Below, one piece after another: positions 31,914 to 52,973 of a DNA stretch of 64,000 nt. The notes below the pieces were generated by a model. That model did no database searches and had not been told where the DNA came from. It saw only the letters and a program-made list of their open reading frames with translations. Each line of letters begins with the position of its first letter. Position 1 is the first letter of the stretch. Made by a program: the position numbers and the translations under genes. The DNA is from a virus (Duplodnaviria; Caudoviricetes): positions 174-64,173 of IMG/VR virus record IMGVR_UViG_3300037466_002669. One strand, given 5' to 3'.

Positions 31914-34900
31914 TGGCGCAAAATATTGTTGATGTATCCTGGGATTTAGCCAAGTTTGACGAACAAACACAAGCTGTCCTGGCAAACATGACCAAAGTAT
32001 ATGATCTGGCAAACCAGGCAAAAGCTACAGGTATTAAACTTGGCAGCGATGGTGGTTTTACTGAACTTAAAAAAAACGTCACCGATTTCAATAAGGTACA
32101 GGAACAAAGTTTAAAGTTAACGGCTTTGCAAGAAAAAGCCGAGCAGGCCCGGATAAAAACACAAAAAGATGCAGCACTGGCAGCCAAAGCAAGGGATGCC
32201 GCCGAACAGCAACGTTTAAAAACTCAGTCGGCTCAACTTGACCTAACTAAAAAACAAACCGCTGCTGATGAGAAGGCCGCCGCCGCAAAAAAATCTGTAA
32301 ATGATATTTCGCTTATAATCCGCAATAAGGGTGACGATCCTGCCTCGGCAGAAACTACCGCTGCTTTTGAAGCTCAAAGACGTGCAGAAGCGGACGCCTC
32401 AATGGCCGCGATAGAGTACGGCAATAGTGTTAATAAATCCACCACAGCATTAAAAGAGCGTGAGGTTGTTTCTAAACAAACCAGTGCTGAAAGTATCCGT
32501 GATAAAGAAATTCAAAAACAACTTGAAAGGCAAGCGGCGCAAGAATTAAAAAACAATGTGCGCGAACAAATAGCCGCTAAGGGTTCACTCGAACAAAGGA
32601 GGGCCGCGTTAATTAGATTGAACGCTGTTTATGATCACTTGAATGCAAGCGAAAGAAATTCGCCTTATGGAGCAAGATTGCAAAAAACTATTGCAGGGGT
32701 GACTACGCAGGTAAAGGAATTGGAAGCCGCCACAGGACGAGCACAAAGAAATGTCGGTAATTACCCGAATGCATTAGAAAAGTTTGGAACTAGGGTAGAA
32801 TCTGTTTTCAGGAGACTTGCGGCCTATGTTTCTATTTTTGCAGTTTTTAATTTTTTCAAGACAGTTGTTGGTGACACATTAGAAGCAGAAAATGCATTGG
32901 TGCGTTTTAAGGCGACACTTGACAATTTAGGGAGGTCTGATGTTTTTGGCAGATTGGATTCCAAAGCGGAACAATTTACAGACCGGTTTAAATATTTGAA
33001 AAAAGAAGATGTTTTAGGCGTATTTGAGCTATTAATTAACTACGGAAAATTAACCGAAAATCAAATCACTGCTTTAATTCCTGTTATAACCAATTTCGCT
33101 GCAAAACAAAGAATCTCAATAGTTGAGGCTACACCAATTATTATTAAAGCACTTGCCGGACAGGGACGCGGATTAAAACAGTATGGAATAGATGTAAAAG
33201 ATGCTCATTCAGTTACAGAAAGGCTTGGGATGATCATGGATGATTTGGGGCCAAAAGTCGAAGGAGCTGCCGATGCATTCGGAAAAACAACACAAGGTAA
33301 AATCGCACAGACAAAAGAAGATTTTGTAAAGCTAAAAGAAGAAATTGGTAATGGATTACTTCCAACTATAAATAAATTATTAGCGGGGTTTGATAATTTA
33401 ATCAATCGCTTCCGTAATATGCACAGTGATATTGATTTGAATACAAGTGCATTTGGAAGAATGTGGGAAAAGATTCAAAACCTATTGCCGTCAAGAGGAA
33501 CCGACAGCAACGGACAAACATTACAGGAGCATTTAGATTCTGAAATGGCTCGCAAATTTGGCGGTCATCAGGTTGCTAATCCTGGCAATGGTGTTAATAC
33601 GTTTATATTACCAGATGATCTGAATCCAAATGGGAATAAAATTTTAGGCACGGGAGGAAGAGATCGGGATAAAACAAAAAAAGAACACAAGGCCGTTGTT
33701 TTAGAATCTGTGAAAAACGAGCTTGATCTTGAATTTGAGCTTTACAAAATTTCGCAACAGCATAAAATTAAATTACTTGATGAAGAGCAAAACGATACAA
33801 AAAAATCATTGGCAGAAAGAATGCTAGCTGCTGAAGATTTTACTAAAGCATCTATTGAACTTTCCGATAAAACTTATCAGCATGAAATAGCTAATGATAA
33901 GGAGAAATTAAAAATAATGGAAATTAATTTTAAGAGACTGAAAAAAGGAACTGAAAAAAATAATCTTGCTGTTGAAATAGAAAATACCGGAAAGGAAATT
34001 AAAGTTGCTCAGGCAAAACAAAATGATGAAAGACTTGCATTACAAGAAGCATTTGGTAAGAAATACCTTGAAATAGCTAAAGATACAGAAGCAGAAAGAT
34101 TAAGGATTTTAGAAAAAGCAGAAAAAGCGATTGAAAACGTACGTATAGAGCAGCATAATGCCATAGAAGCTAACAGGGCCTCAGAAAAAGCAGCACATGA
34201 TAATCTATTGCACGATAAAATAATCAGCCAGGAAAAGTATGATAAGTTAGAAAAAAAATCTATTAAGGAAAACGCTATCCTCCAAGCGCAATCTGATTTA
34301 CAGAAAGCACAAAGGATGAAAGATCTTGTTTTCACAAATTCGCGTTCTACCACTGAAGATAAAAATAACGCAGTTAATAATGTTACTACCGCTAATGCTA
34401 ATTTAATCAGTGCACAAAATACAGATGATAAAACTGATAAAGGACTTGAAAAAAGGCAAGAAATAGTAAAAGATGCACAATTGATCACTCAAACTATTGA
34501 TAGTTTGGTGGACATTGGATATCAAAAAGAAATTAACGCTATTCAGAAAATAATCGATCTTAACGAAGAGAGGAAAAACAGAGAAATTGCCAATATTAAT
34601 GCCTCGACTTTAAGCAACCAGGAGAAAGCGGCGCAAATGCTCCTTTTAGATAATACAGTCGCCGCAAATAACAAAAAATTAAAAAGAGAACAAGTTGCCG
34701 TCCAAATTAAACAGGCAAAGTTTGACCGTGATATGGCTGTTTTAGGCATTCTTGAAAATGTTGCTACTGCTAACTTCAAATTGATTGCACAAGGTGGTTT
34801 TGCTGGTATTGCCGCAGGTGTCGCAGTTGGATTACAAGCGGTATCGGCAATTGCTATGTTAATGGCCAAGCCTCTTCCTCAGATGCCGGCGTACGCCAAA

Positions 34901-35290
34901 GGAACTGATAACCACCCTGGTGGACCTGCAATAGTTGGTGAAGGGCAATATAAAGAACTTGTAACAGAGCCTGGAGGAAAATCTTTTATAGCCTCGCGGC
35001 CAATGTTATTAAACAATCTTCCGAAAGGTTCAAAAGTTACACCTTTAACTAATGAAATGATCATGGCAAGCATGACGCAAAGCGCAAATGCATCAATGGC
35101 AGAAAGAATGGTAGCAAGCAATAGTATTCAGGCAGAAGGAAACCGCGTAGAACTTACCGCAATCAAAGAGGCGGTTTATGAAACCGGACGAATGACTGCA
35201 CAGGCATTAAGAAAACAAAAAGGTGCAAACGTTGTGGTAAACGTTGATTCAAAATTTTATGCTCACATTATGAAAGTTGTGAAAGAGTGA
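31913..35290 (+). CDS. Tail tape measure protein
   Basis: 1125 aa, Ala/Lys/Glu coiled coil, hydrophobic patches, YAKGT...VGE C-terminal motif. Confidence 0.88.
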   Translation: MAQNIVDVSWDLAKFDEQTQAVLANMTKVYDLANQAKATGIKLGSDGGFTELKKNVTDFNKVQEQSLKLTALQEKAEQARIKTQKDAALAAKARDAAEQQRLKTQSAQLDLTKKQTAADEKAAAAKKSVNDISLIIRNKGDDPASAETTAAFEAQRRAEADASMAAIEYGNSVNKSTTALKEREVVSKQTSAESIRDKEIQKQLERQAAQELKNNVREQIAAKGSLEQRRAALIRLNAVYDHLNASERNSPYGARLQKTIAGVTTQVKELEAATGRAQRNVGNYPNALEKFGTRVESVFRRLAAYVSIFAVFNFFKTVVGDTLEAENALVRFKATLDNLGRSDVFGRLDSKAEQFTDRFKYLKKEDVLGVFELLINYGKLTENQITALIPVITNFAAKQRISIVEATPIIIKALAGQGRGLKQYGIDVKDAHSVTERLGMIMDDLGPKVEGAADAFGKTTQGKIAQTKEDFVKLKEEIGNGLLPTINKLLAGFDNLINRFRNMHSDIDLNTSAFGRMWEKIQNLLPSRGTDSNGQTLQEHLDSEMARKFGGHQVANPGNGVNTFILPDDLNPNGNKILGTGGRDRDKTKKEHKAVVLESVKNELDLEFELYKISQQHKIKLLDEEQNDTKKSLAERMLAAEDFTKASIELSDKTYQHEIANDKEKLKIMEINFKRLKKGTEKNNLAVEIENTGKEIKVAQAKQNDERLALQEAFGKKYLEIAKDTEAERLRILEKAEKAIENVRIEQHNAIEANRASEKAAHDNLLHDKIISQEKYDKLEKKSIKENAILQAQSDLQKAQRMKDLVFTNSRSTTEDKNNAVNNVTTANANLISAQNTDDKTDKGLEKRQEIVKDAQLITQTIDSLVDIGYQKEINAIQKIIDLNEERKNREIANINASTLSNQEKAAQMLLLDNTVAANNKKLKREQVAVQIKQAKFDRDMAVLGILENVATANFKLIAQGGFAGIAAGVAVGLQAVSAIAMLMAKPLPQMPAYAKGTDNHPGGPAIVGEGQYKELVTEPGGKSFIASRPMLLNNLPKGSKVTPLTNEMIMASMTQSANASMAERMVASNSIQAEGNRVELTAIKEAVYETGRMTAQALRKQKGANVVVNVDSKFYAHIMKVVKE

Positions 35291-35303: not shown

Positions 35304-35834
35304 ATGAGAATAATAATAATAGTGTTGATTGCGCTATTTAATACCGCCTTCGCACAATTACCGGTTGATCCTGCAACACATTTAATAACCTTTACCGGTG
35401 TAATACAGGCCAATGGAACACAGGCCGAGCTTTATTCCCGTGCGAGAGAATGGTTTGCTAAGACTTATAATTCTGCTACCGATGTAATAAAAATGGACGA
35501 TAAAGATAAAATTGTAGGAAAGGCGAATATGATTGCTTATTATAAAAATTATCATTTCGGGAATATATTTTATCAGGTTTCAGTCTATTTAAAAGACGGG
35601 AAGTTTAAATATGAGATCACTGATTTTTACCATAAAGGCGAATTTGTAAACACCGGATATTCTTATACTCAAACACCGGATTTAGGACATTGCGAAGATT
35701 TGATGAATTCATCAAAAAAAAGAGATCAAAAAATATTTGAAGCCTTTTCTAAACAAATTAATGATGAAATTGAGCCGTTAATTTCCAGCCTCAAAGAAGC
35801 AATGAATAATCAGGTTGCCACCAAAGACTTTTAA
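35304..35834 (+). CDS. Secreted DUF4468-like protein (moron)
   Basis: Signal peptide with Gln+1; ELYSRAREWFAKTYNSATDVIKMDDKD...IVGKA; own TATATTTG promoter at 35292-35299. Confidence 0.65.
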   Translation: MRIIIIVLIALFNTAFAQLPVDPATHLITFTGVIQANGTQAELYSRAREWFAKTYNSATDVIKMDDKDKIVGKANMIAYYKNYHFGNIFYQVSVYLKDGKFKYEITDFYHKGEFVNTGYSYTQTPDLGHCEDLMNSSKKRDQKIFEAFSKQINDEIEPLISSLKEAMNNQVATKDF

Positions 35835-40013: not shown

Positions 40014-40050
40014 TTTAGCCATAAATTACTAAAGGCTTTGGGTAATTTTG
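40014..40050 (+). promoter_or_regulatory. Late promoter 5: TTTAGC-N8-ACTAAA-N9-TAATTTTG
   Basis: Direct reading. Confidence 0.75.
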
Positions 40051-40054: not shown

Positions 40055-41419
40055 ATGCAAATAAGCGTATCAAGCCAGACTACCCTGCTAAATGCAAGCA
40101 ATTTTTTTGTTTTTGCGCTTTATGATGCATCGGCCCCAACTGTATTACTGGAATCGCAGCAGCCCCCAAAACCTTACGGCAACCCTATTCAAATATCCTT
40201 TACGTACAACTGCCTGGCAGGGCATATCTATATAATCAAGTTATGGGAATCTCCTGATGATACCCCTACAGGCATCGTACGTAACTCATTTTCTCAGGCG
40301 GTTAACTCAAATGAAAGCTCCGTTAAAATTAAGTTAGACGAATATTTAGAAGCAGATCTTACCGCCGGACTTGTAAGCGGTACAACTGCTTACGTAAATA
40401 CAGACTGGGCAGGATGGGATTACTCAATAGAAAGGGTAGGTGCAGGAACGATGACACCGGATTCTGAAGTGAGCGCCAACCCACAGTATCATCAAGATGC
40501 TACAGGAGGTTTCCATTTAATTATCGACGGAGATGTTTTTGCCGCAAACGAAAAGTTTGTAGTAAGATTCATTCCACAGGTAGTTTCTATTACTCCTGCA
40601 GGCGTTCCTTCTTCTATATTCTCCGATGGGAGAATAGTCACAGCGGATGCCACTTTGACTCTTACGGACATAGGGAAAGCAATATTTATTCAATCGGCGA
40701 CCACGAAGATCACAATTGCTTTACCGGCCTTATCCACCGTTTCAGATTATTCGTTTTTTTATCTCTTTTCTAATGGTGGTTTACATTATAACGCAATTAT
40801 TCAGGCGCCAGGATCAGACAAATTCTTATTTAATACAGACCGATCACAGCTTATTTTAGGCCAATGCGAAAACGCCAAAATCTTCAAAGCAAACGGAAAG
40901 TGGAATATCGAAAACGACTTACCAGGGGTTTTGAAAGTGGGAGAACTATTTCATACTCACATGGGAGAGGAAATAAATTCCCTGCCATTGTCAGGCCAGC
41001 TGGTTTCCCGTGCTGATTATCCGAGACTTTGGGCATGGGCTCAATCTCTTCCGTCTGGAAGTATCGTTGCTGATTCTGCATGGACTTCAACAAGTGTTAC
41101 AGTCGATGATATCGGGTACTACACTTTAAAAGGCGGTTTTAGTGTAGGAGATGGATCAACAACTTTCCGCCTTCCTTTAATTGACAAATATTTTATTCGT
41201 CCTATTAATTCTGACAGGGTTGCAGGATCTCTTGAACTTCAAACAGTACAATTACACGACCACGGAATTACAGGGTCAAGTCTTACCAACTTTGGCGGCA
41301 ATGGATGGGTTCCGGCTGTTAATCCGCGGACTCCTGAAAGTGCAGGACGCACCGACAAAGCTGGCAGCGTAGAAACCAAACCAACAAATATCGGAGTTCC
41401 CTTATTAATCAGAATATGA
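40055..41419 (+). CDS. Tail protein with C-terminal phage tail collar domain
   Basis: GQLVSRADYPRLW...GDGSTTFRLP...ETKPTNIGVPLLIRI. Confidence 0.8.
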   Translation: MQISVSSQTTLLNASNFFVFALYDASAPTVLLESQQPPKPYGNPIQISFTYNCLAGHIYIIKLWESPDDTPTGIVRNSFSQAVNSNESSVKIKLDEYLEADLTAGLVSGTTAYVNTDWAGWDYSIERVGAGTMTPDSEVSANPQYHQDATGGFHLIIDGDVFAANEKFVVRFIPQVVSITPAGVPSSIFSDGRIVTADATLTLTDIGKAIFIQSATTKITIALPALSTVSDYSFFYLFSNGGLHYNAIIQAPGSDKFLFNTDRSQLILGQCENAKIFKANGKWNIENDLPGVLKVGELFHTHMGEEINSLPLSGQLVSRADYPRLWAWAQSLPSGSIVADSAWTSTSVTVDDIGYYTLKGGFSVGDGSTTFRLPLIDKYFIRPINSDRVAGSLELQTVQLHDHGITGSSLTNFGGNGWVPAVNPRTPESAGRTDKAGSVETKPTNIGVPLLIRI

Positions 41420-42381
41420 AAAAACTATTTACAATATTACTAGTCTTAATTTCTTTGACCTCACAAAGTCAGGTATTGCAAGAACCTACTATTTACGGGA
41501 TCTTGTATAACATTAATGGAGCGAAAACCGCAACCCTTGTTCCTACCGTTAACGGTGTTCCAGTTTTACCTACTCCTCTAAAAAAATACAATCAAGGCGC
41601 CATCTGGATAGATTCTACCAATAAAAAACTTTACTTCTATAACCCTTCCGATTCTTCCTATAACGAAGCAGGTCTATCTCAATCCACAGTAGACAGTATT
41701 TTAGGAGGGTATTATACTAGAGGACAAGTAGATAGTATAATAGCAGTAACTAAATCTCTTTTTAACGGCGGTACAACAGGGCAAACTTTAGTAAAAAACA
41801 GCAATACAGATTTAGATTTTAGCTGGAGTACGCCCGCGGGTTCGACTAATAGTAATACAGGTTCGGGGTATAGGCTCGCAGTTCCTTTCACGAATAATAT
41901 AAGAACAATATTTTCAGTTTCGCCAATTCTATTAGACAGCGTAACAAATACTAATGCACTGACTTTTACTTTTGACACAACTTTATATCATAGTACAGCT
42001 TACAGTAATACTGTTTACGGTTCACTTTCTCAGCAAAACACCAACACTTCAAACATTGCAAGTAATACAACTGCTATTACAGGTAAACAAAATTCTTTAA
42101 CTCTCACTACAACCGGAACAAGCGGTGCGGCTACTTTAACAGGGAGTACTTTAAATATTCCGCAATATACAGGCGGCGGAATAACAGCCGATAGCATTAT
42201 AACAGCAACAGCAGGACAAACTTCATTCATATTTTCAAGTGTGCCAGCTTCAATAAATGATTACATAATTTTTATTAACGGAAATGCTACGACAAATTTC
42301 ACTACTTCAGGTAATACGATAACTCTTGGAATGACAGATTTACTTGCAGGTGACAAAGTAAGATACAAAAGAATAAAATGA
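41416..42381 (+). CDS. Tail-fibre-like protein with N-terminal signal peptide
   Basis: MKKLFTILLVLISLTSQSQ; fibre motifs GGTTGQTLVK, LTLTTTGTSGAATLTGSTLNIPQY. Confidence 0.65.
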   Translation: MKKLFTILLVLISLTSQSQVLQEPTIYGILYNINGAKTATLVPTVNGVPVLPTPLKKYNQGAIWIDSTNKKLYFYNPSDSSYNEAGLSQSTVDSILGGYYTRGQVDSIIAVTKSLFNGGTTGQTLVKNSNTDLDFSWSTPAGSTNSNTGSGYRLAVPFTNNIRTIFSVSPILLDSVTNTNALTFTFDTTLYHSTAYSNTVYGSLSQQNTNTSNIASNTTAITGKQNSLTLTTTGTSGAATLTGSTLNIPQYTGGGITADSIITATAGQTSFIFSSVPASINDYIIFINGNATTNFTTSGNTITLGMTDLLAGDKVRYKRIK

Positions 42382-44351
42382 GAATTATTTTAACGATATT
42401 ATTTCTTTTTTCAGTTGCTTACGGGCAAACAAATTATTACGTTTCTAATGCAGGGAATGATAGTAATGATGGGCTTACCACAACAACAGCGTGGCAAACG
42501 CTTTCTAAAGTAAATGCCTCAACATTTAATGCAGGCGATTCTATCCTACTTAAAAGAGGCGATTCGTGGAATGAGAAGCTGACTTTAACAAGCTCAGGAA
42601 GTGCGGGAAGTCCTATTGTAGTGAGTGCTTACGGGTCAGGAGTAAAGCCGCTAGTAACCGGATTTCAAACACTCACAGGCTTTGTAAATACCAGTGGGAA
42701 TATTTGGACGGTAACAGCATCAAATTCAGTTCCTAGTTTAAACACGGTATTAGTCGATGGGAAGATTCAGGCTAAAGGACGTTACCCCAATGCGAGTGGG
42801 GTAAATGGAGGGTATTTAACTTACCAGACAGCAACCCAAACATCTTTAACGTCAAGTTCTCTTACTGGTGCTCCAAACTACACCGGCAAAGAATGTGTAG
42901 TAAGAACTGCTGCATGGATTCTTGATGTGGTGAAGGTTGCTTCTCAATCAACAAGTACTTTAAACTTTAGCCAATTGTTGACTTATAATGCCGGTACATT
43001 GGGGGGATCAGGGTTCTTCTTTCAAAATGACAGTACCTTTTTAGATGTTCAGGGAGAATGGAGTTTTGATTCAGCAACAAAAAGACTACAGGTTTATTCA
43101 ATTTCCTCACCAACAGTTCAGATTTCAACTATTGACACCTTAATTTATGTCAATGGCCATCATTATATCACTTTTGACAATCTTTCTATAACAGGAGCCA
43201 ACAAGGCGGCATTCCAGTTTGATTCATTAAGTAATATTACTGTACAGAATAGTTCCATAAATAACTCTGGAAACATCGCCTTATCGGCTCAAAAATCATC
43301 CGACCTCTCTATCATAAATGACAGTGTTCAAAACTCTTTAAGTAACGGCATTTTCTTCAAAAGTATATACTACAACAACTTAATGATTGACACCTGTAAT
43401 TATCCTGTAATAAGTAATAATTATATTAAAAACACGGGTATCTATGCTGGAATGGGTATGAGTAACAATGGCAGATATGTGGGCGTTTATGTAATAGGTC
43501 ACAAGCCTAACATATCTAATAACCAAATAGATTCGACAGGATATAATAGTTTAATGTTCAATGGTGACACCTCTCTAATCGAGAAAAACTATGTGAGCAA
43601 TTTTTGTTTTGTAAAAGACGATGGCGCAGGAATTTACACAGTAGTAGGAACGTACATTCCGGCTGATTACAATAATGGCTCTATTATAAGAAAAAACATC
43701 GTTGTTAATGGAGTTGGTGCACCGCAAGGTAAGTCATTTCGTGCAGAGGCTTATGGTATTTACCTAGACAATGGCATTAAAAATATAGCCATAGATTCCA
43801 ACGCAATTTATAATGCGACGTTTGGAGGGCTTTATTTACATGAAGCTGATTCTAATACCGTCAGGGTTAATAATGTTTTTAATACCGTTGGGAACGGGTT
43901 TTATTATAATGGAGACAACTCTTTAATATCTGCCGGAGGGAATCAGATTAAAAATAATGCTTTCTATTCTTCTTCTCCATCCTGGTACAATATATTAAGA
44001 TCATCTGGAACTAATTTGGGTAATATCGATAGCAACTATTATTCTCGCCCTTCTGATACCCTTACAAATTTCAGCTTAAATGGCGTAAACTACGCGCTTG
44101 CAGGGTGGAAATCAGCAAGTGGGAAAGATTTAAATTCTGTAGGAACTCCGCTAGGAATAGTAAGTAGTTCAGCAACTATCGTTTATAATCCTACTCAAAA
44201 CGATAGCACGATTTCTTTTACGAACAGAAAAATGTCAATAAGAAACGTTCGTTACAATTCAATAACATTGGCCCCCTTTGCTTCAGCTATTCTCTTTGAT
44301 GAGATTATCACAATTGCCCCAAGACAATACCAATATAAACATTACCAATGA
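42378..44351 (+). CDS. Right-handed parallel beta-helix protein with signal peptide (depolymerase/adhesin-like)
   Basis: YYVSNAGNDSNDG..AWQTL N-cap, PbH1-like Asn-rich repeats, KDDGAGIY. Confidence 0.75.
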   Translation: MRIILTILFLFSVAYGQTNYYVSNAGNDSNDGLTTTTAWQTLSKVNASTFNAGDSILLKRGDSWNEKLTLTSSGSAGSPIVVSAYGSGVKPLVTGFQTLTGFVNTSGNIWTVTASNSVPSLNTVLVDGKIQAKGRYPNASGVNGGYLTYQTATQTSLTSSSLTGAPNYTGKECVVRTAAWILDVVKVASQSTSTLNFSQLLTYNAGTLGGSGFFFQNDSTFLDVQGEWSFDSATKRLQVYSISSPTVQISTIDTLIYVNGHHYITFDNLSITGANKAAFQFDSLSNITVQNSSINNSGNIALSAQKSSDLSIINDSVQNSLSNGIFFKSIYYNNLMIDTCNYPVISNNYIKNTGIYAGMGMSNNGRYVGVYVIGHKPNISNNQIDSTGYNSLMFNGDTSLIEKNYVSNFCFVKDDGAGIYTVVGTYIPADYNNGSIIRKNIVVNGVGAPQGKSFRAEAYGIYLDNGIKNIAIDSNAIYNATFGGLYLHEADSNTVRVNNVFNTVGNGFYYNGDNSLISAGGNQIKNNAFYSSSPSWYNILRSSGTNLGNIDSNYYSRPSDTLTNFSLNGVNYALAGWKSASGKDLNSVGTPLGIVSSSATIVYNPTQNDSTISFTNRKMSIRNVRYNSITLAPFASAILFDEIITIAPRQYQYKHYQ

Positions 44352-45613
44352 AAAAAAATACTATCCTAATGAAAAAAATACTATTAAGCATATTATTATT
44401 ATCACCTTTCTTTTTAGTGGCCCAACAGGCAAGGGTACTGAATGGGCAATATAACGATGGGCAAAGTTTCGGCAAACCTATTCCTGATACCGTTAGAACA
44501 CTCGTAGCCACATCTCCCTTATCCATCGCAAGCGGTGGGGCTTCTTTGGTAGACACTATTAAATCCAGTGGCTCAGGAACTCCGGCTGGCTCAAATGGGT
44601 ATATTCAATTTAATAATTCTGGTAGTTTTGGAGCAAGTTCAAACCTTTTCTGGGACAATACAAATAGTAGGCTTGGATTGGGAGGTGTACCCAGCTATCC
44701 ACTTCATATTCAAACAAACGCAAATTCAACACAAAGAATACGTATTGAAAATATCAATACTGGTTACGCAGCAGTAGCTCAGATTGATGCAGGAAATGGA
44801 ACAGGCTCTTTTAAGGAGGGAGTGACAAGTACTGGATTCACTCCTAATGGTCTCCTTGTTCCCAATACAGTTTTCTTTCAATCTAGCGCTGCAAGCAGGC
44901 TTTTGTTTCAGTCCGTATCTACTACTGCACCGATTATTTTTGCAAGTGGCACAGATGGTTTAGGTAATACAGAAATAATGAGAATGTTTGTAAACGGCAC
45001 TGTGGCCATTGCGCAAAATACAGACAGCACCTCTGGAAAATTGGTTGTCGGCGGAAATATAGTAGCAGGGAACAATATAATAGACGCAACCAACAACAGA
45101 ATAGGAGTAAATACTAAAGTACCAATCCACGCCCTTGACGTTCAGGGAGCATCAGGTAATACCATTGTAGGGGTTGGTGATAATTTCGGCACCGCGCCAC
45201 TTATCTATTTACAGGCGGATGCTACTAACGGGGTTGTATCCTTTAATTCAAGACGGAATTACCCTTTCGCTATTCTTGTTAATAATACAGAGTACATAAG
45301 AACATTAACGACCGGCAATACAGGATTTGGGCTGACTGTTCCAACTGCGATAATTCACATAAAGGCAGGTACGGCAACAGCCGGAACAGCACCTTTAAAA
45401 TTTACATCTGGGATCAACTTGACTACATCGGAAGCGGGAGCAATGGAATACGATGGCAATAATTTATTTTTTACGCCAAGTTCAGCTGTTAGGAATGCCC
45501 TTTTAATGACGGCGTCTGTTAATACTGTTTCACCAACTTCGCCTAATAGGACTTTGACCGTAGTAATTAACGGAACCACATATTACATACCAGCTAAAAC
45601 TTCAAATGACTAA
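44348..45613 (+). CDS. Tail-fibre-like protein with signal peptide
   Basis: MKKILLSILLLSPFFLVA-QQ; PAGSNGYIQFNNSGSFGASSNLFWD and RIGVNT beta-repeat motifs. Confidence 0.65.
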   Translation: MKKNTILMKKILLSILLLSPFFLVAQQARVLNGQYNDGQSFGKPIPDTVRTLVATSPLSIASGGASLVDTIKSSGSGTPAGSNGYIQFNNSGSFGASSNLFWDNTNSRLGLGGVPSYPLHIQTNANSTQRIRIENINTGYAAVAQIDAGNGTGSFKEGVTSTGFTPNGLLVPNTVFFQSSAASRLLFQSVSTTAPIIFASGTDGLGNTEIMRMFVNGTVAIAQNTDSTSGKLVVGGNIVAGNNIIDATNNRIGVNTKVPIHALDVQGASGNTIVGVGDNFGTAPLIYLQADATNGVVSFNSRRNYPFAILVNNTEYIRTLTTGNTGFGLTVPTAIIHIKAGTATAGTAPLKFTSGINLTTSEAGAMEYDGNNLFFTPSSAVRNALLMTASVNTVSPTSPNRTLTVVINGTTYYIPAKTSND

Positions 45614-45831
45614 TGAAAATACTATTTCTTTTATTGATTCCAATTCTAGTAAACGCACAAGAGAAAAAAGATACTTCAATCTATATTTTAAAAGGTAAAA
45701 TACCTGATTTCCAAATGCTTTATAAAGCTGTAACGCAGCCCCGTGATGTAACGCCTAATCAACAGGAAGCAATCGCAAAATGGATTGAGGGGATTAAACC
45801 TGAAAAAGAAAAAGCTGATTCTACTAAATGA
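45613..45831 (+). CDS. Small secreted protein
   Basis: MKILFLLLIPILVNA-Q. Confidence 0.65.
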   Translation: MKILFLLLIPILVNAQEKKDTSIYILKGKIPDFQMLYKAVTQPRDVTPNQQEAIAKWIEGIKPEKEKADSTK

Positions 45832-45868
45832 AAACCCTAACCATATTAACCTTCAAAACAGATCAAAC

Positions 45869-45958
45869 ATGACTAAAGAAAAAGAAGACCATATCCCATT
45901 TGCCTTAATGATTATCCTCTTACTGGCAATGTTGGTGGGGGCTATCTTTTCAATATAA
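45869..45958 (+). CDS. 29-aa membrane peptide (not in ORF track)
   Basis: MTKEKEDHIPFALMIILLLAMLVGAIFSI. Confidence 0.4.
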   Translation: MTKEKEDHIPFALMIILLLAMLVGAIFSI

Positions 45959-46076
45959 TTCCCGTGCTCACCGAAGGGAACAAAACTGCCGGTGAAAAAC
46001 ATTTATAACTAAGGGATTTTAAAGGAAATCCTTGCAAAATGGATTGTTCAGGTTATTAGATTTTAAACTTTAAGGG

Positions 46077-46105
46077 AGGAGGTTTTTAGTTAGCGAAAAG
46101 CCTCC
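46077..46105 (+). terminator. Hairpin (terminator-like)
   Basis: ggaggtttt...aaaagcctcc. Confidence 0.5.
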
Positions 46106-46113
46106 TTATTTAT

Positions 46114-46455
46114 ATGAAACATTTACTTACGATATTATTTTTACTGTTGAGCTCGATGGCTTTTAGCCAGACTACAAATACAGTTACTTTAGACGGTTCC
46201 GGATCAACAGATCCCGATGGAACAATCGTAAAGTACAAATGGGTGCAAACATCCGGTACAACGACCCCGATTGTGAATTCAGATTCGGCCAAAGCCACAG
46301 TAGTTTATACCATTCCGGGGATTTATGTGTACTCTCTAACTGTAACCGATAATAGTGGAGCCACAGCGACCGGAAGCACCCAAGTAACCGTTTTACCTCC
46401 AAATCAATTACCTCACGCTGTAATAGTGCCTAAAATAACAATTCAGCTTCCATGA
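46114..46455 (+). CDS. Secreted stand-alone PKD domain protein
   Basis: Signal peptide; VTLDGSGSTDPDGTIVKYKWVQ...YVYSLTVTDNSGAT. Confidence 0.85.
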   Translation: MKHLLTILFLLLSSMAFSQTTNTVTLDGSGSTDPDGTIVKYKWVQTSGTTTPIVNSDSAKATVVYTIPGIYVYSLTVTDNSGATATGSTQVTVLPPNQLPHAVIVPKITIQLP

Positions 46456-46685
46456 AATACCTCTTAATCATATTACTTTCCTCTTGTGTGACTACTGAAA
46501 AGGTCACTCTTGACGGATCAAAAAGTTATGATACGGACGGGAGAATAGTCAGTTACGAATGGCAGGTAAATGGACGGGTGGTGAGCCGTGATATTACAGC
46601 TTCAGTACCGGTAAATTCAACAGTTAAACTAATAGTAACGGATGATAAAGGAGGGATAGGTTCAACAACTAAAATAATACAATGA
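46452..46685 (+). CDS. Lipoprotein with PKD domain
   Basis: Lipobox LSSC; VTLDGSKSYDTDGRIVSYEW...LIVTDDKG. Confidence 0.8.
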   Translation: MKYLLIILLSSCVTTEKVTLDGSKSYDTDGRIVSYEWQVNGRVVSRDITASVPVNSTVKLIVTDDKGGIGSTTKIIQ

Positions 46686-46810
46686 AAACAGAGCACAATT
46701 TTAAAAACACGGCCTTAGCAATATTCTATTGGACTTTAGCCATAGGTGGAATTATTACGGCGATCTGTTTTATTTCATGGATGATCTCAAAAACAATTTT
46801 TCAACAATAA
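46682..46810 (+). CDS. 42-aa membrane protein (not in ORF track)
   Basis: MKTEHNFKNTALAIFYWTLAIGGIITAICFISWMISK...; ATGA coupling. Confidence 0.55.
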   Translation: MKTEHNFKNTALAIFYWTLAIGGIITAICFISWMISKTIFQQ

Positions 46811-46820: not shown

Positions 46821-47012
46821 ATGAAACGTTTCTCTTTATTACTTATTGCAATTCCGGGAGGACTGGGATTTGTATTTTTATTCTGTGTGACCAGACTAGC
46901 TTATTTCCACAACAGCTTCTTTCAACGCAATCACATTGCTCTTGGCCTGTTATGTCTGGTCATCGCAGCAGTAATTTTTAAACTCAATTACAAACCTGGA
47001 AAAAAGAGATGA
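46821..47012 (+). CDS. Two-TM small membrane protein
   Basis: Two hydrophobic segments, basic tail. Confidence 0.6.
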   Translation: MKRFSLLLIAIPGGLGFVFLFCVTRLAYFHNSFFQRNHIALGLLCLVIAAVIFKLNYKPGKKR

Positions 47013-47320
47013 GCGAGGACGAAAAAAAAGAAATCATAGATAAAGAGTTAAGAGGCGTTACAGCCCGCAATCTACTATGGCTTATGGGTGGCATTGTAAC
47101 CGTCCTTATAACGGTAATGTCCACTTACTTTTCTATTATCCGAAAGTTGGACGGGCTTAATGTGATGCAGAATAATATCAATGTTATGTCTACTAAGGTC
47201 GAAAATAACACCGAAGATATCAAGAACATTCAACAACACATCATCCCTTCACTTGACAACCGAATGAGCATTATGGAAGAAAAAATGAAAGATAAAGTAT
47301 TTTTAAAAACAGCACCATGA
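47009..47320 (+). CDS. Single-TM coiled-coil protein (holin/antiholin-like)
   Basis: One TM segment plus coiled coil. Confidence 0.5.
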   Translation: MSEDEKKEIIDKELRGVTARNLLWLMGGIVTVLITVMSTYFSIIRKLDGLNVMQNNINVMSTKVENNTEDIKNIQQHIIPSLDNRMSIMEEKMKDKVFLKTAP

Positions 47321-47628
47321 CACAACTTATTTTACAGGTCTCTTTCATTATTCTGGCGGCAATTTGCAAGGCATTGACCGATACCATTGCCTTTCATAAA
47401 GGTGGTGTATTTAAGAGTAAGTTTTTCGACATTAATTCGCAAGGGAAATTCCTGCCGTTCACAAAATACCCCTTGGACGGGTTTCACCTCTCTAACTCTT
47501 TAATGATTGCCTTTTTCGTGGCTGCGATGTGCATCCCTTCGCCATTAGTCTGGTATTTTAATATTGTGCTTCTCGGCGTAATATTCAACCTTGTTTTTAA
47601 TCTTTTTTGGAACCATATTTTTAATTAA
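47317..47628 (+). CDS. Multi-TM membrane protein
   Basis: Three hydrophobic segments. Confidence 0.6.
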   Translation: MTQLILQVSFIILAAICKALTDTIAFHKGGVFKSKFFDINSQGKFLPFTKYPLDGFHLSNSLMIAFFVAAMCIPSPLVWYFNIVLLGVIFNLVFNLFWNHIFN

Positions 47629-47642
47629 AAAACTTTTTTGTT

Positions 47643-47801
47643 ATGAAAAATTTAAACTGGTATTTAATCAAATCAATTTTTGTTGAAGCTTTCGCAGGTG
47701 GTCTCTTTTGGTCTTATGGACACCATATAACTGGTGGGATCTTCTTTGCCCTTTGCGCGGCAACATTCGTGTATGCCATACTTAAAAAAATAATTCAATG
47801 A
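47643..47801 (+). CDS. 52-aa two-TM protein (not in ORF track)
   Basis: MKNLNWYLIKSIFVEAFAGGLFW...; TGA overlaps next ATG. Confidence 0.55.
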   Translation: MKNLNWYLIKSIFVEAFAGGLFWSYGHHITGGIFFALCAATFVYAILKKIIQ

Positions 47802-48190
47802 AAGAATTAATCTTCAAGTCCATTCATGACACCTTCACGATAATTGGAGGAGGAAAGCAGTTAAGCTATTATCTCGCGGGGTTCTTTTTTGCGTTCCTGG
47901 GAATTATGCTTTCGCTCTACCAGAGTTCTCGAAGCCGTGACAAATTAAGTCCAAGTACACCTTTAAAGTTTTCCTGGTTATTTCTTATTTGGGATAACCT
48001 AAGAAGGGCGGTAGTAACCCTTGTTGTGATGTTCATTCTGTTTCGGGTGCTGGATCTCTCTTATGTTCCTCTCATGATTGGGGTAGGGATAGTAGTTTCA
48101 GTGGCGCTCGATAGAATTATTGTATTGCTCATGAGTTGGAGTGATAACATTTTTGATTTACTCGCTTCTGCCAGAAAAAAAGCACAATGA
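47798..48190 (+). CDS. Putative holin
   Basis: Three TM segments, directly upstream of spanin. Confidence 0.5.
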   Translation: MKELIFKSIHDTFTIIGGGKQLSYYLAGFFFAFLGIMLSLYQSSRSRDKLSPSTPLKFSWLFLIWDNLRRAVVTLVVMFILFRVLDLSYVPLMIGVGIVVSVALDRIIVLLMSWSDNIFDLLASARKKAQ

Positions 48191-48708
48191 TAGACTATAA
48201 AAAATGGTTGCTCTTTTTATGCATTGCTGCGGTCGTGGTAATGCTGCTGACTTCATGCACCACCTCTAAAGACAATAAAGCATTCGCCAGGGTAACCGCA
48301 AATACAACTCTTCTTAACAAGGCTGGCCGCATTTGGGAAAAGTCAAACCCTTGTGTAGTTGATACAGTAATTCAATTTAAAAATGGTGTTGAAACGATTC
48401 GTTATGACACTCTTTGGAATGATGTAGTAAAAGTTTATTATGATACTGCAACCCGGACTAACACCGTAACAGAATACAAGACCATCGTGAAAAACGTAGT
48501 CAAAACCGACACCATTTTAGTCGACAAAACGGATGTGCGAAGATTGAATTTAGCCTTGTCAGATAACGACAAGTTACAAGCCGAAAACAACCAGGTTAAA
48601 TCCGACAATAAGGATCTGAAAAGTAAGTTAAATAAACGCACTTGGGAGTTTTGGGGATTGATAGTACTGATTGCAGGTGCAATAGGATTGAAATTTTATT
48701 TAAAATGA
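48187..48708 (+). CDS. Unimolecular spanin (u-spanin)
   Basis: N-terminal lipobox LTSC plus coiled coil plus C-terminal TM (WEFWGLIVLIAGAIGL). Confidence 0.75.
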   Translation: MIDYKKWLLFLCIAAVVVMLLTSCTTSKDNKAFARVTANTTLLNKAGRIWEKSNPCVVDTVIQFKNGVETIRYDTLWNDVVKVYYDTATRTNTVTEYKTIVKNVVKTDTILVDKTDVRRLNLALSDNDKLQAENNQVKSDNKDLKSKLNKRTWEFWGLIVLIAGAIGLKFYLK

Positions 48709-49382: not shown

Positions 49383-49495
49383 AAAAAGAAAAACCAATAT
49401 CCGCTATTCGTCTTGTAATGAGAAAGGCAGAATTTAAAAAAGTAATCAGTTACTTCAAATTTAAAATTTGGAAAACAACTTCATCAACGTTATGA
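49379..49495 (+). CDS. 38-aa basic peptide (not in ORF track)
   Basis: ATGA-coupled at both ends. Confidence 0.45.
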   Translation: MKKEKPISAIRLVMRKAEFKKVISYFKFKIWKTTSSTL

Positions 49496-50076
49496 CAGCA
49501 CAGGAACAAAGACAACAGCTATTTGACACAATGATTATCCGGGATAAGATAACCAAAGGTGACACCGTTATTATGGATGATGTAGAAAAAATAGCGGATT
49601 ATATTGTAGGGCGAATCTTAGAAAATAAATACCGGTATGTTAACATCGCGCATAAATTCCCAAATCCAGGCTTAAAGTGGTGGCTAATCGCGGTTATTCA
49701 CTATATGGAATGCAACTTGAATTTTAATTGTTATCTTGGCAATGGCCAGCCGTGGAACCAACGAACAACCATAGTTCCCAAAGGTCGTGGAGCTTTCAAG
49801 TCTTTTGAAGAGGGCGCAATTGATGCAATTAAATTACAGGGCTTGGATAAGGTCACTGATTGGAGCATAGGGAATGTTCTTTATATTCTTGAGGGATATA
49901 ACGGCTATGGTTATGCGAAATATCGCGGAATTAATTCTCCTTACTTGTGGTCAGGGACTAATCAATATACTTCCGGTAAATATATTTTTGATGGAACGTA
50001 TAAAGCAGACGCAGTAAGTAATCAAATTGGCGCCGCTGTTTTACTAAAAAAACTATTACGAAAGACGCATTGGTAA
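49492..50076 (+). CDS. Endolysin, lysozyme-family (COG5526-like); likely start MTAQ
   Basis: IAVIHYMEC, NGQPW, TTIVPKGRG, LEGYNGYGY, SPYLWSGT motifs. Confidence 0.8.
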   Translation: MTAQEQRQQLFDTMIIRDKITKGDTVIMDDVEKIADYIVGRILENKYRYVNIAHKFPNPGLKWWLIAVIHYMECNLNFNCYLGNGQPWNQRTTIVPKGRGAFKSFEEGAIDAIKLQGLDKVTDWSIGNVLYILEGYNGYGYAKYRGINSPYLWSGTNQYTSGKYIFDGTYKADAVSNQIGAAVLLKKLLRKTHW

Positions 50077-50861: not shown

Positions 50862-51302
50862 TTATTTTTCACATTTAATATTTTTTTCAACTTCTCTTAA
50901 AACTTGCTGGTAATTAATACAGGTAAATCGTAAAACTTTCCACCCTAAACTAATTGCCAGATTAATCTTTTCAGTGTCTTTTGTGAATCCGAGAAGGGTT
51001 GTATGGCTCGACTTATCACTATTTAATCCATCGTACTCAATTGCTATTTTAAATTCCGGCAAAGCAAAATCAAACCTGAATCTTCTTTTACTGAATCGGT
51101 ATTCCTTTTCCAATGTGTACCCCTTTTCCTGGCACCAATATTTTAATTGCCATGCAATCCACTGCACTTCTTTACAATCGTTACGGGCTTTCTTTGCACT
51201 TTTCTTTGCAGGTTCTTTGCAGTTGTTTGCAAGGTGCTGGTTTCTTGGAGCACAAGCTGATTTTAGTACATCTGATATGGTAGGGTAATGGCTCACGCCC
51301 AA
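50862..51302 (-). CDS. DUF559/Vsr-like PD-(D/E)XK endonuclease
   Basis: EYRF..RRFRFDFA..KIAIEYDG...H...GWKVLRFT. Confidence 0.85.
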   Translation of the reverse strand: MGVSHYPTISDVLKSACAPRNQHLANNCKEPAKKSAKKARNDCKEVQWIAWQLKYWCQEKGYTLEKEYRFSKRRFRFDFALPEFKIAIEYDGLNSDKSSHTTLLGFTKDTEKINLAISLGWKVLRFTCINYQQVLREVEKNIKCEK

Positions 51303-51550
51303 CTTACTTTATACATTTTTACCTGTTCAAAAGGATGAATTACGCTTGTTACCGAATACCCTAAATCCATTAATTTTTTAACCCCTTCAAGATTTATATG
51401 GATACCGAATAATAGAACTTCTTCAAATCCTAATTTAGACTGTGATTCAATTCTTTCAATAGCCTTTTCATAGTTTGCTGATTGAGCTATTTTTGCATCT
51501 GATCTTGCTTCAGATGCGTATAAAGTCTTTTTTACTTTTTTCTCTTCCAT
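51293..51550 (-). CDS. Hypothetical protein (allele B of 35..292)
   Basis: Homology within window. Confidence 0.8.
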   Translation of the reverse strand: MEEKKVKKTLYASEARSDAKIAQSANYEKAIERIESQSKLGFEEVLLFGIHINLEGVKKLMDLGYSVTSVIHPFEQVKMYKVSWA

Positions 51551-51556
51551 CTGTTT

Positions 51557-51847
51557 TTATTTTAATTGTGATTGTAAACGATCAATTTCGGCAGCGATTA
51601 ATGCACCGGCAATAACAAGGCGTTCAAAATATGGTTTCCGGCACAACCGATAAAACCAAACATGATCCCAGTTTTTAGGGTACCAAACATTCCCGGATAA
51701 ATCAGGCGTACTTAAAACTTTTGCAGCCTCTACTAATTGGTTTTCATCATACCATTCTATATGATTTACATGATGTTCACCTGTAAATCCATGCTTAATA
51801 ATTTGCTCTTGCCTTTCTTCTGCAATTAATTCAACTCCGTTTTTCAT
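51557..51847 (-). CDS. Hypothetical phage protein, copy B only (likely start MKNGVELIA)
   Basis: Flanked by 18-bp direct repeat. Confidence 0.7.
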   Translation of the reverse strand: MKNGVELIAEERQEQIIKHGFTGEHHVNHIEWYDENQLVEAAKVLSTPDLSGNVWYPKNWDHVWFYRLCRKPYFERLVIAGALIAAEIDRLQSQLK

Positions 51848-51872
51848 TTTATTTATTTTAATTGTGATTAAA

Positions 51873-52067
51873 TTATTCTTCGTCCAAAATAACAACAGTG
51901 TCCCGCGCCAATGCTTCTTCATCGTCCGGATCTTCTATAAAATTTATCTCATCGCTTCTTACTGAATTCACTAATCCGTAAGCAAATTCTGTTTTTCTTT
52001 CAGCTACAAATACATCCATGTTATCAGGATATTGAGATAGTTTCTCTTTTAATTCTTTTACTGTCAT
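51873..52067 (-). CDS. Small acidic protein (allele of 867..1064)
   Basis: Homology within window. Confidence 0.8.
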   Translation of the reverse strand: MTVKELKEKLSQYPDNMDVFVAERKTEFAYGLVNSVRSDEINFIEDPDDEEALARDTVVILDEE

Positions 52068-52287
52068 ATGTTTTCATTTTAAATTATTTCAAAAATGGTT
52101 CACCTATACACCATAAGGTTTTTGAACTTAAAACATTTGCCTGTGCTGAAATATCCCGTTGTAAAACACGTCAACGCCGACAATTTTCCCATTTCTTTGT
52201 ACTTCAAAGACAATGGTTTCACCTTTTAATTTTGCCATGATTTATTCTGTTACCTATACACAGAAAGGTTTTTAATTATAAATATTT

Positions 52288-52683
52288 TTAGATGATCTCA
52301 AAAACGTAAATCAAATCCTTGTTCCATACTTTCTGTTCTGCTTCTTCAAACTCTTTAAAATCTTCTTCACTTGCACCATAATACACACTACCATCACCTT
52401 GCCTCATTGTTAATTCAGGATCGCGTAATTTATTCTCAAAATAAATCCCCTGCGATTCCAAATAAGAGAAGAAAAATTCTTTAGCGGTTTTAAATGAAAT
52501 ACTCCACCCTATTAATGCCAATTGCGCAAATTGTTGTTCTGTTATACCAGTTAGTTTGCCGATTAGATGTTTGGTTTTTATAGAATATCCATCCCACACG
52601 AAATTTGTAATATTTTTTTTATCATCTTCCGACAATTCTACTAACAGTAGTTTCTTTTTAAGATTGAGTATTTGTTGTTTCAT
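52288..52683 (-). CDS. Hypothetical protein (mosaic allele of 1528..1992)
   Basis: Shared termini. Confidence 0.75.
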   Translation of the reverse strand: MKQQILNLKKKLLLVELSEDDKKNITNFVWDGYSIKTKHLIGKLTGITEQQFAQLALIGWSISFKTAKEFFFSYLESQGIYFENKLRDPELTMRQGDGSVYYGASEEDFKEFEEAEQKVWNKDLIYVFEII

Positions 52684-52692
52684 TTCAGATTA

Positions 52693-52962: not shown

Positions 52963-52973
52963 TGATTGTTATT

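Follow-up and report, generated by a model that had tools for sequence, protein, structure and literature searches.

What could a host secretion signal be doing on every gene that lies past the last tail gene of a tailed phage and before its lysis genes, when tailed-phage particles are built in the cytoplasm? The question is raised by a temperate Bacteroidota phage (IMG/VR record IMGVR_UViG_3300037466_002669), of which we analyzed 64,000 nucleotides, referred to here as the window. Six consecutive genes of this phage (41416–46685) start with Sec-type leaders.

Six consecutive leader-bearing genes

A sequence-only reading of the window had reported the six ORFs and quoted their N-termini, and both were confirmed when the sequence was read again. 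Leaders were called with a simple n/h/c-region heuristic, which flagged all six genes: five have a small-x-small motif followed by Gln, and the sixth, 46452, has a lipobox. Among the ∼106 ORFs of the window, the heuristic otherwise flagged only a gene at 35304–35834 (DUF4468), a seventh leader-bearing gene that the sequence-only reading had overlooked, and, in a first pass, a multi-TM protein at 46821. A positive n-region, a hydrophobic h-region and small residues at −3/−1 characterize 41416, 42378, 44348, 45613, 46114, and the additional gene 35304; none of the cytoplasmic phage proteins was flagged. A short h-region followed by a Cys-terminated lipobox is seen in 46452 (L-S-S-C) and in 48187 (L-T-S-C, plus a C-terminal TM segment). 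Gln occupies position +1 after the predicted cleavage site in 5/5 SPI-type leaders of the run, the “Q-rule” of Sec/signal peptidase I substrates of Bacteroidota (PMC5837995).

Across a background set of 137 IMG/VR loci (1.55 Mb, 1949 ORFs), leaders were called on 2.7% of ORFs and the longest run comprised three genes, found in relatives of the cassette described here; a run of six is far beyond chance. No T9SS C-terminal domain (CTD) had been evident in the six proteins, and Pfam and NCBIfam searches agreed: even with thresholds as loose as E 0.1–1, neither these proteins nor 35304 matched Por_Secre_tail/TIGR04183.

Two translationally coupled units

The run had been taken for a single module, but its six genes fall into two translationally coupled groups split by a hairpin (Table 1). 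Stop/start overlaps chain 40055, 41416, 42378, 44348, and 45613 into one unit headed by the collar fiber gene 40055, whose own stop overlaps the start of 41416, while the PKD genes 46114 and 46452 are coupled to holin-like lysis genes and form the second. Judged by its homologues, 44348 probably starts at its second Met (44369) rather than at the position first assigned. Exact palindrome sites precede terS, portal, capsid, and the collar fiber gene, with none further downstream and no late-promoter-like site inside the run, and the GC content of the run genes is like that of the structural module. Judged from such sequence features, the fiber-run genes do not resemble morons, which typically have their own promoter and terminator, deviant composition, and expression apart from the late operon. 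The holin-like block has 84–92% identical copies in the lysis region of a related uncultured phage, L083, and a canonical endolysin lies 3′ of the homologous block in another, L084.

Table 1. Leader-bearing genes of the window and neighboring features
Feature	Coordinates	Strand	Basis or remark
DUF4468 protein, 176 aa, leader-bearing	35304..35834	+	Directly 3′ of tape-measure gene; Pfam DUF4468 E 2.7e-12; phrog_4002
Last late-promoter-like element	40015..40050	+	Palindrome and TAnnTTTG-like box, before collar fiber gene
SP-less tail fiber, collar-type C-terminal part	40055..41419	+	PHROG tail fiber and tail collar families; no leader
Fiber/adaptor-like protein, 321 aa, leader and Gln+1	41416..42381	+	All near homologues keep leader
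Right-handed beta-helix protein, 657 aa, leader-bearing, glycan-cleaving enzyme-like	42378..44351	+	Pfam Beta_helix
Trimeric-fiber-like protein, 421 aa, leader-bearing	44348..45613, probable start 44369	+	Near homologues all with leaders
72-aa protein, leader with Gln+1, last coupled gene of fiber unit	45613..45831	+	Sequence read and heuristic
Possible 29-aa single-TM ORF, uncertain gene	45869..45958	+	Sequence read
Terminator-like hairpin, 12-pair stem then T-rich tail	46076..46107	+	Separates fiber unit from PKD/lysis unit
Single PKD (K319L-like) domain protein, 113 aa, leader-bearing	46114..46455	+	Pfam E 2.2e-20
PKD lipoprotein, 77 aa	46452..46685	+	Lipobox, Pfam PKD_4
42-aa TM ORF	46682..46810	+	Coupled (ATGA) to PKD lipoprotein gene; sequence read
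Five small membrane proteins, holin-like block	46821..48190	+	TM segments
Lipoprotein with C-terminal TM helix, unimolecular-spanin-like	48187..48708	+	Lipobox and C-terminal TM; homologues in L083, L084 lysis blocks

Fiber-, enzyme-, and docking-type domains

The short motifs previously singled out as typical fiber repeats do recur in many phage fiber-like proteins, and are common to many that are leaderless. AlphaFold gave poor models (mean pLDDT 45 and 58), which is unsurprising for monomers of trimeric fibers, and usable fold matches came only from the C-terminal 70 residues of the 321-aa protein. This C-terminal domain (253–321) resembles the N-terminal docking domains of podovirus tail fibers, including T7 gp17, at middling scores (VIA Z 8.6–6.0; model pLDDT 64–79 for blocks from 261 and about 49–53 for 241–260), and has an HMM match to the N-region of a K1 depolymerase (E 2.8e-4). 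No docking-type domain was seen in 42378 or 44348.

The 42378 protein matches Pfam Beta_helix (E 9.5e-11) and TIGR03804. Its helix cap aligns from residue 16–20, directly after the leader, leaving no particle-binding N-terminal domain before the helix, an observation that counts against a periplasmic route to the virion. Long relatives of the protein carry PKD and T9SS CTD domains; its own C-terminus appeared CTD-like by eye, but neither Pfam nor NCBIfam supported this, and we take it for the ordinary end of a beta-sandwich. The model of the 421-aa protein gave no fold match above Z 5, but its family profile matches the Bdellovibrio MAT fiber Bd2133 (PDB 8OND; E 6e-9) over two stretches, and its ESM Atlas neighbors, taken as leads only, are phage fiber clusters. 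The 72-aa protein had no family match in Pfam, NCBIfam, or PHROG searches. These assignments suggest that 41416–45831 encodes accessory receptor-binding gear: a putative fiber or adaptor (321 aa), a candidate glycan-cleaving beta-helix enzyme, a MAT-like, presumptively trimeric fiber (421 aa), and a 72-aa partner.

Leader conservation and O-glycosylation sequons

Leaders are kept in all near homologues despite sequence drift. The Gln+1 pattern occurs in 34/50 leader-bearing homologues versus 6/148 leaderless ones, and 109 of the 120 full-length beta-helix homologues were leader-flagged; most homologues of this protein have A-x-A followed by Thr in place of Gln+1. Most members of the 321-aa family also share a conserved Cys pair in the N-domain.

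The general O-glycosylation motif of Bacteroidota, D-(S/T)-(A/I/L/V/M/T) (PMC8550257), is enriched ∼3-fold in the leader proteins of the window (20 observed vs 6.8 expected), compared with 16 observed and 20.2 expected in its leaderless late proteins. Related cassettes repeat the pattern (leader proteins 95 vs 33 expected; leaderless proteins 43 vs 43.4), with control motifs flat in the same comparison. Among fiber homologues, the observed/expected ratio is 2.05 with a leader and 0.81 without one; the excess reaches 893 versus 297 in the beta-helix family and 6 versus 1.5 in the 321-aa protein. Such enrichment is compatible with any periplasm-exposed protein, virion-bound or not.

The leaders therefore look functional, given their conservation, the leader-limited sequon excess, a T9SS domain in a relative, and homology to MATs. 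These independent lines back the export proposed from the sequence; the two fates suggested there, attachment to virions at lysis or a fiber-like structure on the host envelope, are both hypotheses.

Recurrence of the cassette

Genomic contexts of homologues were drawn from scans of IMG/VR and GTDB. In the loci L082, L083, L084, L085, and L139, too, the cassette fills the interval from the last tail gene to the lysis genes, and the uncultured phages that bear it, at least five, have different head and tail modules. The partners of 321 aa and 421 aa and the beta-helix protein co-occur repeatedly on other contigs, and contigs of matching length among their homologues agree with this. L082 has a DUF4468 gene on the opposite strand. 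A 561-aa PKD protein of L083 has a T9SS type A sorting domain recognized by two libraries (28.6 and 25.3 bits). A second such domain, suspected in a reading frame downstream of the L084/L085 PKD gene, gained no Pfam support and was dropped. Against a periplasmic route to the virion, it may be noted that the cassettes include T9SS cargo and lipoproteins, which are bound for the cell envelope.

In one genome that CheckV rates 100% complete (G404), all identifiable fiber-like ORFs are leader-bearing, a statement that is not airtight since tail proteins of 389 aa and 716 aa resisted identification. Leader-bearing, fiber-like paralogues also occur in non-phage chromosomal contexts in Chitinophagaceae. 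Among isolate phages, neither blastn with the 41416–46685 DNA nor tblastn with the 321-aa, 421-aa, and beta-helix proteins gave a useful relative; the 321-aa family was absent from 401 sampled Bacteroidota genomes (profile search, E 1e-6), and an initial pattern scan of GTDB returned no match. The description of the locus as an unusual system holds against the literature searched, but the system is not unique, as the cassette recurs in other phages.

Comparison with known systems

The closest analogues come from cultured Cellulophaga phages. phi10:1 (gp091–095, NC_021802) and phi18:3 (gp085–087, NC_021794) have five and three consecutive fiber or pectate-lyase genes that all start with leaders, mostly with Gln+1, positioned as here between tail/hub genes and a block of TM-protein and endolysin genes in a phage of a Bacteroidota host. 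GenBank calls gp091–094 of phi10:1 and gp085–087 of phi18:3 structural protein, tail fiber protein, or pectate lyase by “experimental MS/MS proteomics analysis”, and their virion association rests on these notes. Envelope material that co-purifies with the particles might account for the MS/MS detection, which would count against a periplasmic route to the virion. Unlike the window phage, the two phages show no sequon excess, and no homology between the window cassette and their proteins was detectable beyond the leaders, making them analogues only. We found no paper on these leaders in the literature searched.

The 421-aa protein resembles the MATs of Bdellovibrio bacteriovorus, which have a signal peptide, an N-terminal domain, a phage-fiber-like trimeric shaft, and variable tips (Caulton et al. 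2024, PMC10769870); the shaft repeats are homologous in sequence to the 421-aa family. MATs differ in being cellular proteins, shown on the surface of the predator, and in carrying an S74 chaperone domain in 13/21 cases (PMC10769870). No Pfam match to Peptidase_S74 was found in the run proteins of the window, and no counterpart of the conserved ∼130-aa beta-rich MAT N-domain is apparent, the region after the leader in the 421-aa family spanning only about 50 residues.

Earlier reports already describe Bacteroidota phages whose proteins are adapted for the Sec/SPI and T9SS routes of the host: T9SS cargo encoded by ‘Cryophage’ (Bellas et al. 2020, PMC7468147) and proteins of Porphyromonas gingivalis phages that follow the Q-rule (Matrishin et al. 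2023, PMC10367356). Those reports differ in regarding the proteins as host-modifying cargo and describe no tail-coupled fiber-like proteins. Unlike T9SS cargo, the six window proteins are without a CTD, although a cassette relative has one. Signal-bearing genes that act on the envelope or receptor are also found in or beside tail-fiber modules, as in lambda (lom and bor), T5 (Llp), and phi80/T1 (Cor), but each of these is a lone small gene with expression signals of its own, whereas the window has a coupled run of large fiber- and enzyme-like proteins in the late operon.

With T7 gp17, CBA120 TSP4, and the Klebsiella K1 depolymerase 9K4A, the window shares a predicted beta-helix enzyme beside fiber genes; a putative docking-type beta-sandwich resembles their N-terminal attachment domains but sits C-terminally. 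Unlike tailspikes and branched complexes, its beta-helix is without a particle-binding N-domain and all members carry export leaders.

A proposed periplasmic route for accessory fibers and its alternatives

The account that we tentatively put ahead, while holding it at a little under even confidence, is that the fibers mature in the periplasm and join the particle at lysis. The genes from 41416 to 45831 would be transcribed and translated late in infection together with the SP-less collar fiber gene, but their products, unlike every other virion protein, would pass through Sec into the periplasm. There, signal peptidase I would cut the leader, the new N-terminal Gln would be cyclised in most proteins, and the general O-glycosylation system of the host would decorate their many sequons. 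Trimers would fold in the periplasm and probably dock on one another, meeting finished tails only after the neighboring holin block has opened up the inner membrane, or afterwards, in the lysate. Attachment at lysis had been proposed from the sequence, and the MS/MS-annotated proteins of phi10:1 and phi18:3 favor it by analogy; the two PKD genes fit it less well, looking more like lysis-linked envelope cargo than fibers. Counting against the route, we know of no tailed phage that assembles virion parts from the periplasm. Moreover, an SP-less collar fiber is present, and leader-bearing proteins may thus not be needed for infection. It is conceivable, with a shade less assurance, that the route extends to a broad set of Bacteroidota phages including those of Cellulophaga, whose virion fibers and depolymerases would be Sec-exported, host-processed and O-glycosylated in the periplasm, and added at holin opening.

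The alternative that deserves most weight, though we consider it rather unlikely, is that the exported proteins never become virion parts and, made late or in lysogens, either work on the cell envelope or escape when the cell lyses. They could possibly destroy or mask a glycan receptor, sparing progeny from debris and excluding superinfecting phages, or remodel the surface as adhesins do. The T9SS type A domain found by two libraries in a relative's PKD protein, the fusion of PKD and CTD domains to long beta-helix homologues, the lipoproteins within cassettes, and the homology of the 421-aa family to cell-surface MATs all point this way, as do the chromosomal Chitinophagaceae paralogues, the co-occurring SP-less collar fiber, and the printed precedents of Cryophage and P. 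gingivalis phages. Yet four genes of the run are coupled to a tail fiber gene and, as typical morons do not, match the structural module in GC content; fiber-like proteins lacking both CTD and lipobox would have no way out of the periplasm; the analogous Cellulophaga proteins are annotated as virion proteins after MS/MS detection; and G404 has only leader-bearing fiber candidates, its two unassigned tail proteins aside.

Two further explanations appear improbable. Were the run an assortment of morons, host genes for secreted proteins that the phage had captured and whose functions are unrelated, its place would be apt, the tail/lysis junction being the classic site of morons such as lambda lom and bor, and both the opposite-strand DUF4468 gene in L082 and the cellular-looking T9SS relatives of the beta-helix and PKD families would be in character. 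That three partners repeatedly travel together, that stops overlap starts and composition is shared with the module, and that the arrangement is conserved in at least five phages leave this little credence. There is a similarly slim chance that the leaders are not used for export and that these are ordinary fibers whose assembly onto tails is cytoplasmic, which is the rule for tailed phages and what the position, coupling, and fiber homologies of the genes would lead one to expect. It seems just as doubtful that the hydrophobic N-terminus does nothing, is cut off by a different protease, or serves in, for example, membrane contact during infection, given that divergent homologues retain the n/h/c layout together with small-x-small and Gln+1. 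The link between sequon excess and leader presence, the Cys pair in the N-domain of most 321-aa family members, and the T9SS CTD fusions within the same families likewise argue for export.

If fibers do pass through the periplasm, they would represent an extracytoplasmic branch of tailed-phage assembly, of which all textbook cases known to us are cytoplasmic, and would yield host-glycosylated fibers. Folding, disulfides, N-terminal capping, and glycosylation would then depend on host envelope machinery, and host range would be set by the glycosylation system of the producer strain as well as by fiber sequence. Recombinant cytoplasmic expression of such fibers or depolymerases may yield wrong products, and such proteins would be misclassified by the signal-peptide filters used to sort phage structural genes from host-modifying cargo. 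If instead the proteins stay on the cell, the cassette would be a large, late-expressed receptor- or surface-modifying system, equally undescribed. The cultured Cellulophaga systems make the choice between virion and envelope directly testable.

Predicted exported proteins outside the fiber unit

The PKD proteins 46114 and 46452 and the DUF4468 protein 35304 are predicted to be exported and are more likely envelope accessories linked to lysis or injection than virion parts. Domains homologous to 46114 occur at the matching position in leader-bearing PKD proteins of 561–1191 aa in L083, L084, and L139. Leader-bearing DUF4468 genes adjoin the tape-measure gene also in L082, L084, and Flavobacterium phage 6H.

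Operon anatomy and genomic setting

The window carries a temperate siphovirus-like genome of ∼51 kb, with a late operon on the + strand running through integrase, terminase small and large subunits, portal, capsid-type proteins, tape-measure, tail/hub, and fibre genes. The early region is present twice, at the window ends, with near-identical proteins but different intervening genes, so the source IMG/VR virus record (64,173 bp) seems either to span more than a single unit genome or to join two variants.

Six ORFs (41416, 42378, 44348, 45613, 46114, and 46452, named by start coordinate) begin with Sec-type export signals (leaders), confirming the positions and N-termini quoted by the sequence-only reading. 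Five of these leaders fit the Bacteroidota Q-rule (PMC5837995), with Gln directly after a small-x-small ending, and 46452 has a lipobox; as that reading also held, the six proteins show no detectable T9SS sorting domain. A simple n/h/c-region heuristic flagged only these genes and 35304-35834 among ∼106 window ORFs, against a background of 2.7% (1,949 ORFs from 137 unrelated or distantly related IMG/VR loci), in which the longest flagged run is three ORFs, itself in relatives of the window's cassette.

The genes had been described as a single six-gene tail-fibre module. Stop/start codon overlaps chain the leaderless collar fibre gene, 41416, 42378, 44348, and 45613, and the operon's last late-promoter-like palindrome lies just 5' of the collar gene. 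A 12-pair hairpin with a T-rich tail separates this chain from 46114 and 46452, which are coupled via ATGA overlaps to a 42-aa TM ORF; directly downstream on the same strand are holin-like genes, several mutually overlapping. Overlaps, hairpin, and ATGA coupling thus resolve the module into two units: a fibre unit joined to the collar fibre gene, and a PKD pair joined to lysis genes. The GC content of the run equals that of the structural module. The block beyond the PKD pair is identified as a lysis block because its homologues in relatives terminate with a canonical endolysin.

Coordinates of features in the window and in related loci
Feature	Position	Strand	Description
Early region	1-13570; 51293-64000		two copies
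Tape-measure protein	31913-35290	+	1125 aa
DUF4468 gene, window	35304-35834		directly 3' of tape-measure gene
Tail/hub protein	after tape-measure	+	1372 aa
Collar fibre	after tail/hub protein	+	454 aa; C-terminal part matches tail-fibre and tail-collar PHROGs
Hairpin	46076-46107		
Lysis block	downstream of 46821		five small membrane proteins and a lipoprotein with C-terminal TM helix (spanin-like)
173-aa protein	48187-48708		end of holin-like block; lipoprotein signal and C-terminal TM helix; predicted unimolecular-spanin architecture; homologues in phage loci L083 and L084
202-aa protein	49468-50076		at position of relatives' endolysin; no match in Pfam, PHROG or NCBIfam; may be an unrecognised lysis enzyme
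DUF4468 gene, phage locus L082	L082:2815-3420	-	
DUF4468 gene, phage locus L084	L084:2199-2723		
DUF4468 gene, Flavobacterium phage 6H	L203:13992-14546		
240-aa ORF	L084:2804-3526		between DUF4468 gene and tail hub gene; not in window
Two small lipoprotein genes	L083:2133-2809	-	between tape-measure-like gene and head protease gene; look like moron insertions
653-aa fusion protein	L139:8351-10312		Bacteroidota MAG contig
Three tandem paralogues	L187:8108-15018		Ilyomonas chromosome; 780/724/771 aa

Protein content of the run

The 657-aa product of 42378 is a right-handed beta-helix whose cap begins immediately after the leader, without a particle-binding domain. Its family is well conserved (>250 full-length homologues, 36–71% identity; leader in 109/120), and in a few long members the beta-helix is joined to K319L-type PKD domains plus a T9SS sorting domain (P0351, P0354, and P0360); the long relative P0343 has FN3 with a T9SS sorting domain instead. 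The window's separate beta-helix and PKD parts occur elsewhere as one secreted protein.

By homology, 44348 (421 aa) is a predicted fibre: its family profile matches the shaft of the Bdellovibrio MAT fibre Bd2133 (PDB 8OND, E 6e-9), and its C-terminal ∼100 residues are also found terminally in other fibre-like and in beta-helix proteins of Bacteroidota, Patescibacteria, and Bdellovibrionota. In the L139 protein, this tip domain shares one chain with an N-terminal membrane anchor and a pectate-lyase-like beta-helix, so enzyme and fibre tip can be fused. The 321-aa product of 41416 appears to be composed of phage-fibre parts. Its central segment is 76–80% identical to segments of 1161–1750-aa leader-bearing proteins in other phages, and its last 70 residues match a K1 depolymerase by HMM (E 2.8e-4) and, in poor monomer models, resemble podovirus tail-fibre N-terminal docking domains (VIA Z 8.6–6.0, including T7 gp17 and CBA120 TSP4).

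Both 46114 and 46452 encode a single K319L-like PKD domain, and no relatives were found for 45613 (72 aa). Gene 35304 encodes a DUF4468 protein; leader-bearing DUF4468 genes adjoin the tape-measure gene in four phage lineages, before or after it and on the same or opposite strand. A possible role for the protein is to act from the envelope on DNA injection, e.g. in superinfection exclusion.

Evidence for export

Leader conservation, a sequon excess, a cysteine pair, and envelope cargo in the same cassettes make genuine export of the leader-bearing proteins very probable from sequence; unused leaders are improbable. Across all near homologues of the 321-aa, 421-aa, and beta-helix proteins the leader is retained while its sequence drifts. 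Gln+1 occurs in 34 of 50 distinct leader-bearing fibre homologues, compared to 6/148 leaderless ones (a chance pattern).

The Bacteroidota O-glycosylation motif D-(S/T)-(A/I/L/V/M/T) (PMC8550257) is ∼three-fold above composition-matched shuffles only in leader-bearing proteins, and control motifs are flat. Observed and expected counts are 20 and 6.8 for the window's leader-bearing proteins vs 16 and 20.2 for its leaderless late proteins, 95 and 33 vs 43 and 43.4 in related cassettes, and 893 and 297 in the beta-helix family. Fibre homologues that have a leader reach an observed/expected ratio of 2.05, leaderless ones 0.81; because the excess is missing from leaderless homologues that share these folds, it is linked to export rather than to fibre structure. 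The cysteine pair, located in the domain behind the leader, is conserved in most 321-aa family members. One related cassette encodes a PKD protein of 561 aa in which both Pfam and TIGR04183 detect a T9SS type A sorting domain, and several lipoproteins are also encoded in the related cassettes.

Related cassettes and Cellulophaga phages

In the related phage loci L082, L083, L084, L085, and L139, the interval from the last leaderless structural gene to the holin-like genes holds leader-bearing fibre-like proteins, frequently accompanied by lipoproteins and a leader-bearing PKD protein. L082 encodes a 265-aa homologue of 41416 and a beta-helix with 50% identity to 42378. The phages differ in their head and tail modules; G404, the record containing L083, shares early/replication genes (83–97% protein identity) and the lysis block with the window, whereas its structural module is unrelated. 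The cassette thus moves as a unit. G404 (L206/L207/L208 with L083) is a complete 56.8-kb phage and a clear case of whole-module exchange.

In two cultured Cellulophaga phages, consecutive genes between the hub/tail genes and a TM-protein and endolysin block start with canonical leaders, mostly with Gln+1: five in siphovirus phi10:1 (NC_021802, gp091-095) and three in podovirus phi18:3 (NC_021794, gp085-087). GenBank labels gp091-094 and gp085-087 structural protein, tail fiber protein or pectate lyase "based on experimental MS/MS proteomics analysis", which changed our reading of the virion-or-envelope question. These proteins have no detectable homology to the window's and, unlike them, no sequon excess; they are analogues, and the argument is one of architecture only.

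Virion parts or envelope proteins

The sequence-only reading proposed either fibres attached at lysis or a structure on the host envelope. We tentatively favour periplasmic maturation and joining to tails, at somewhat below an even chance, given the translational coupling with a tail fibre gene, the docking-type domain at the end of 41416, the complete genome G404, where the only ORFs recognised as fibre-like bear leaders, and the Cellulophaga architecture. From the observed leaders, coupling, conservation, sequon statistics, and homologies we infer every biochemical step: the four fibre-unit proteins would be Sec-exported, processed, mostly cyclised at the N-terminus, and O-glycosylated, fold as periplasmic trimers, probably assemble with one another by way of the 321-aa protein's docking-type domain, and join completed tails once the inner membrane is breached by the neighbouring holin block, or later in the lysate. 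Exported accessory proteins would be the role of the PKD pair and of the DUF4468 protein.

The main rival, export without incorporation into the virion, is rather unlikely but draws on several observations: T9SS cargo and lipoproteins in related cassettes, homology to MATs, which cells display on their surface (PMC10769870), leader-bearing paralogues at chromosomal, non-phage sites in Chitinophagaceae, the window's own leaderless collar fibre, and two reports of secretion cargo encoded by Bacteroidota phages (PMC7468147, PMC10367356). An unrelated pile of morons is about as improbable as unused leaders. On the Ilyomonas chromosome, three tandem leader-bearing fibre-like paralogues have no phage genes nearby, and the third weakly matches a T9SS sorting domain (21.8 bits, below cut-off).

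In the literature searched, we found no discussion of leader-bearing tail fibres, and phage-encoded Sec or T9SS cargo of Bacteroidota phages is described only as host-modifying (PMC7468147, PMC10367356); the Cellulophaga records hold the evidence without commenting on it. Distinctive in the window are the six-gene run, the division of the operon into two units, the DUF4468 gene apart from the run, and a leaderless fibre in the same operon.
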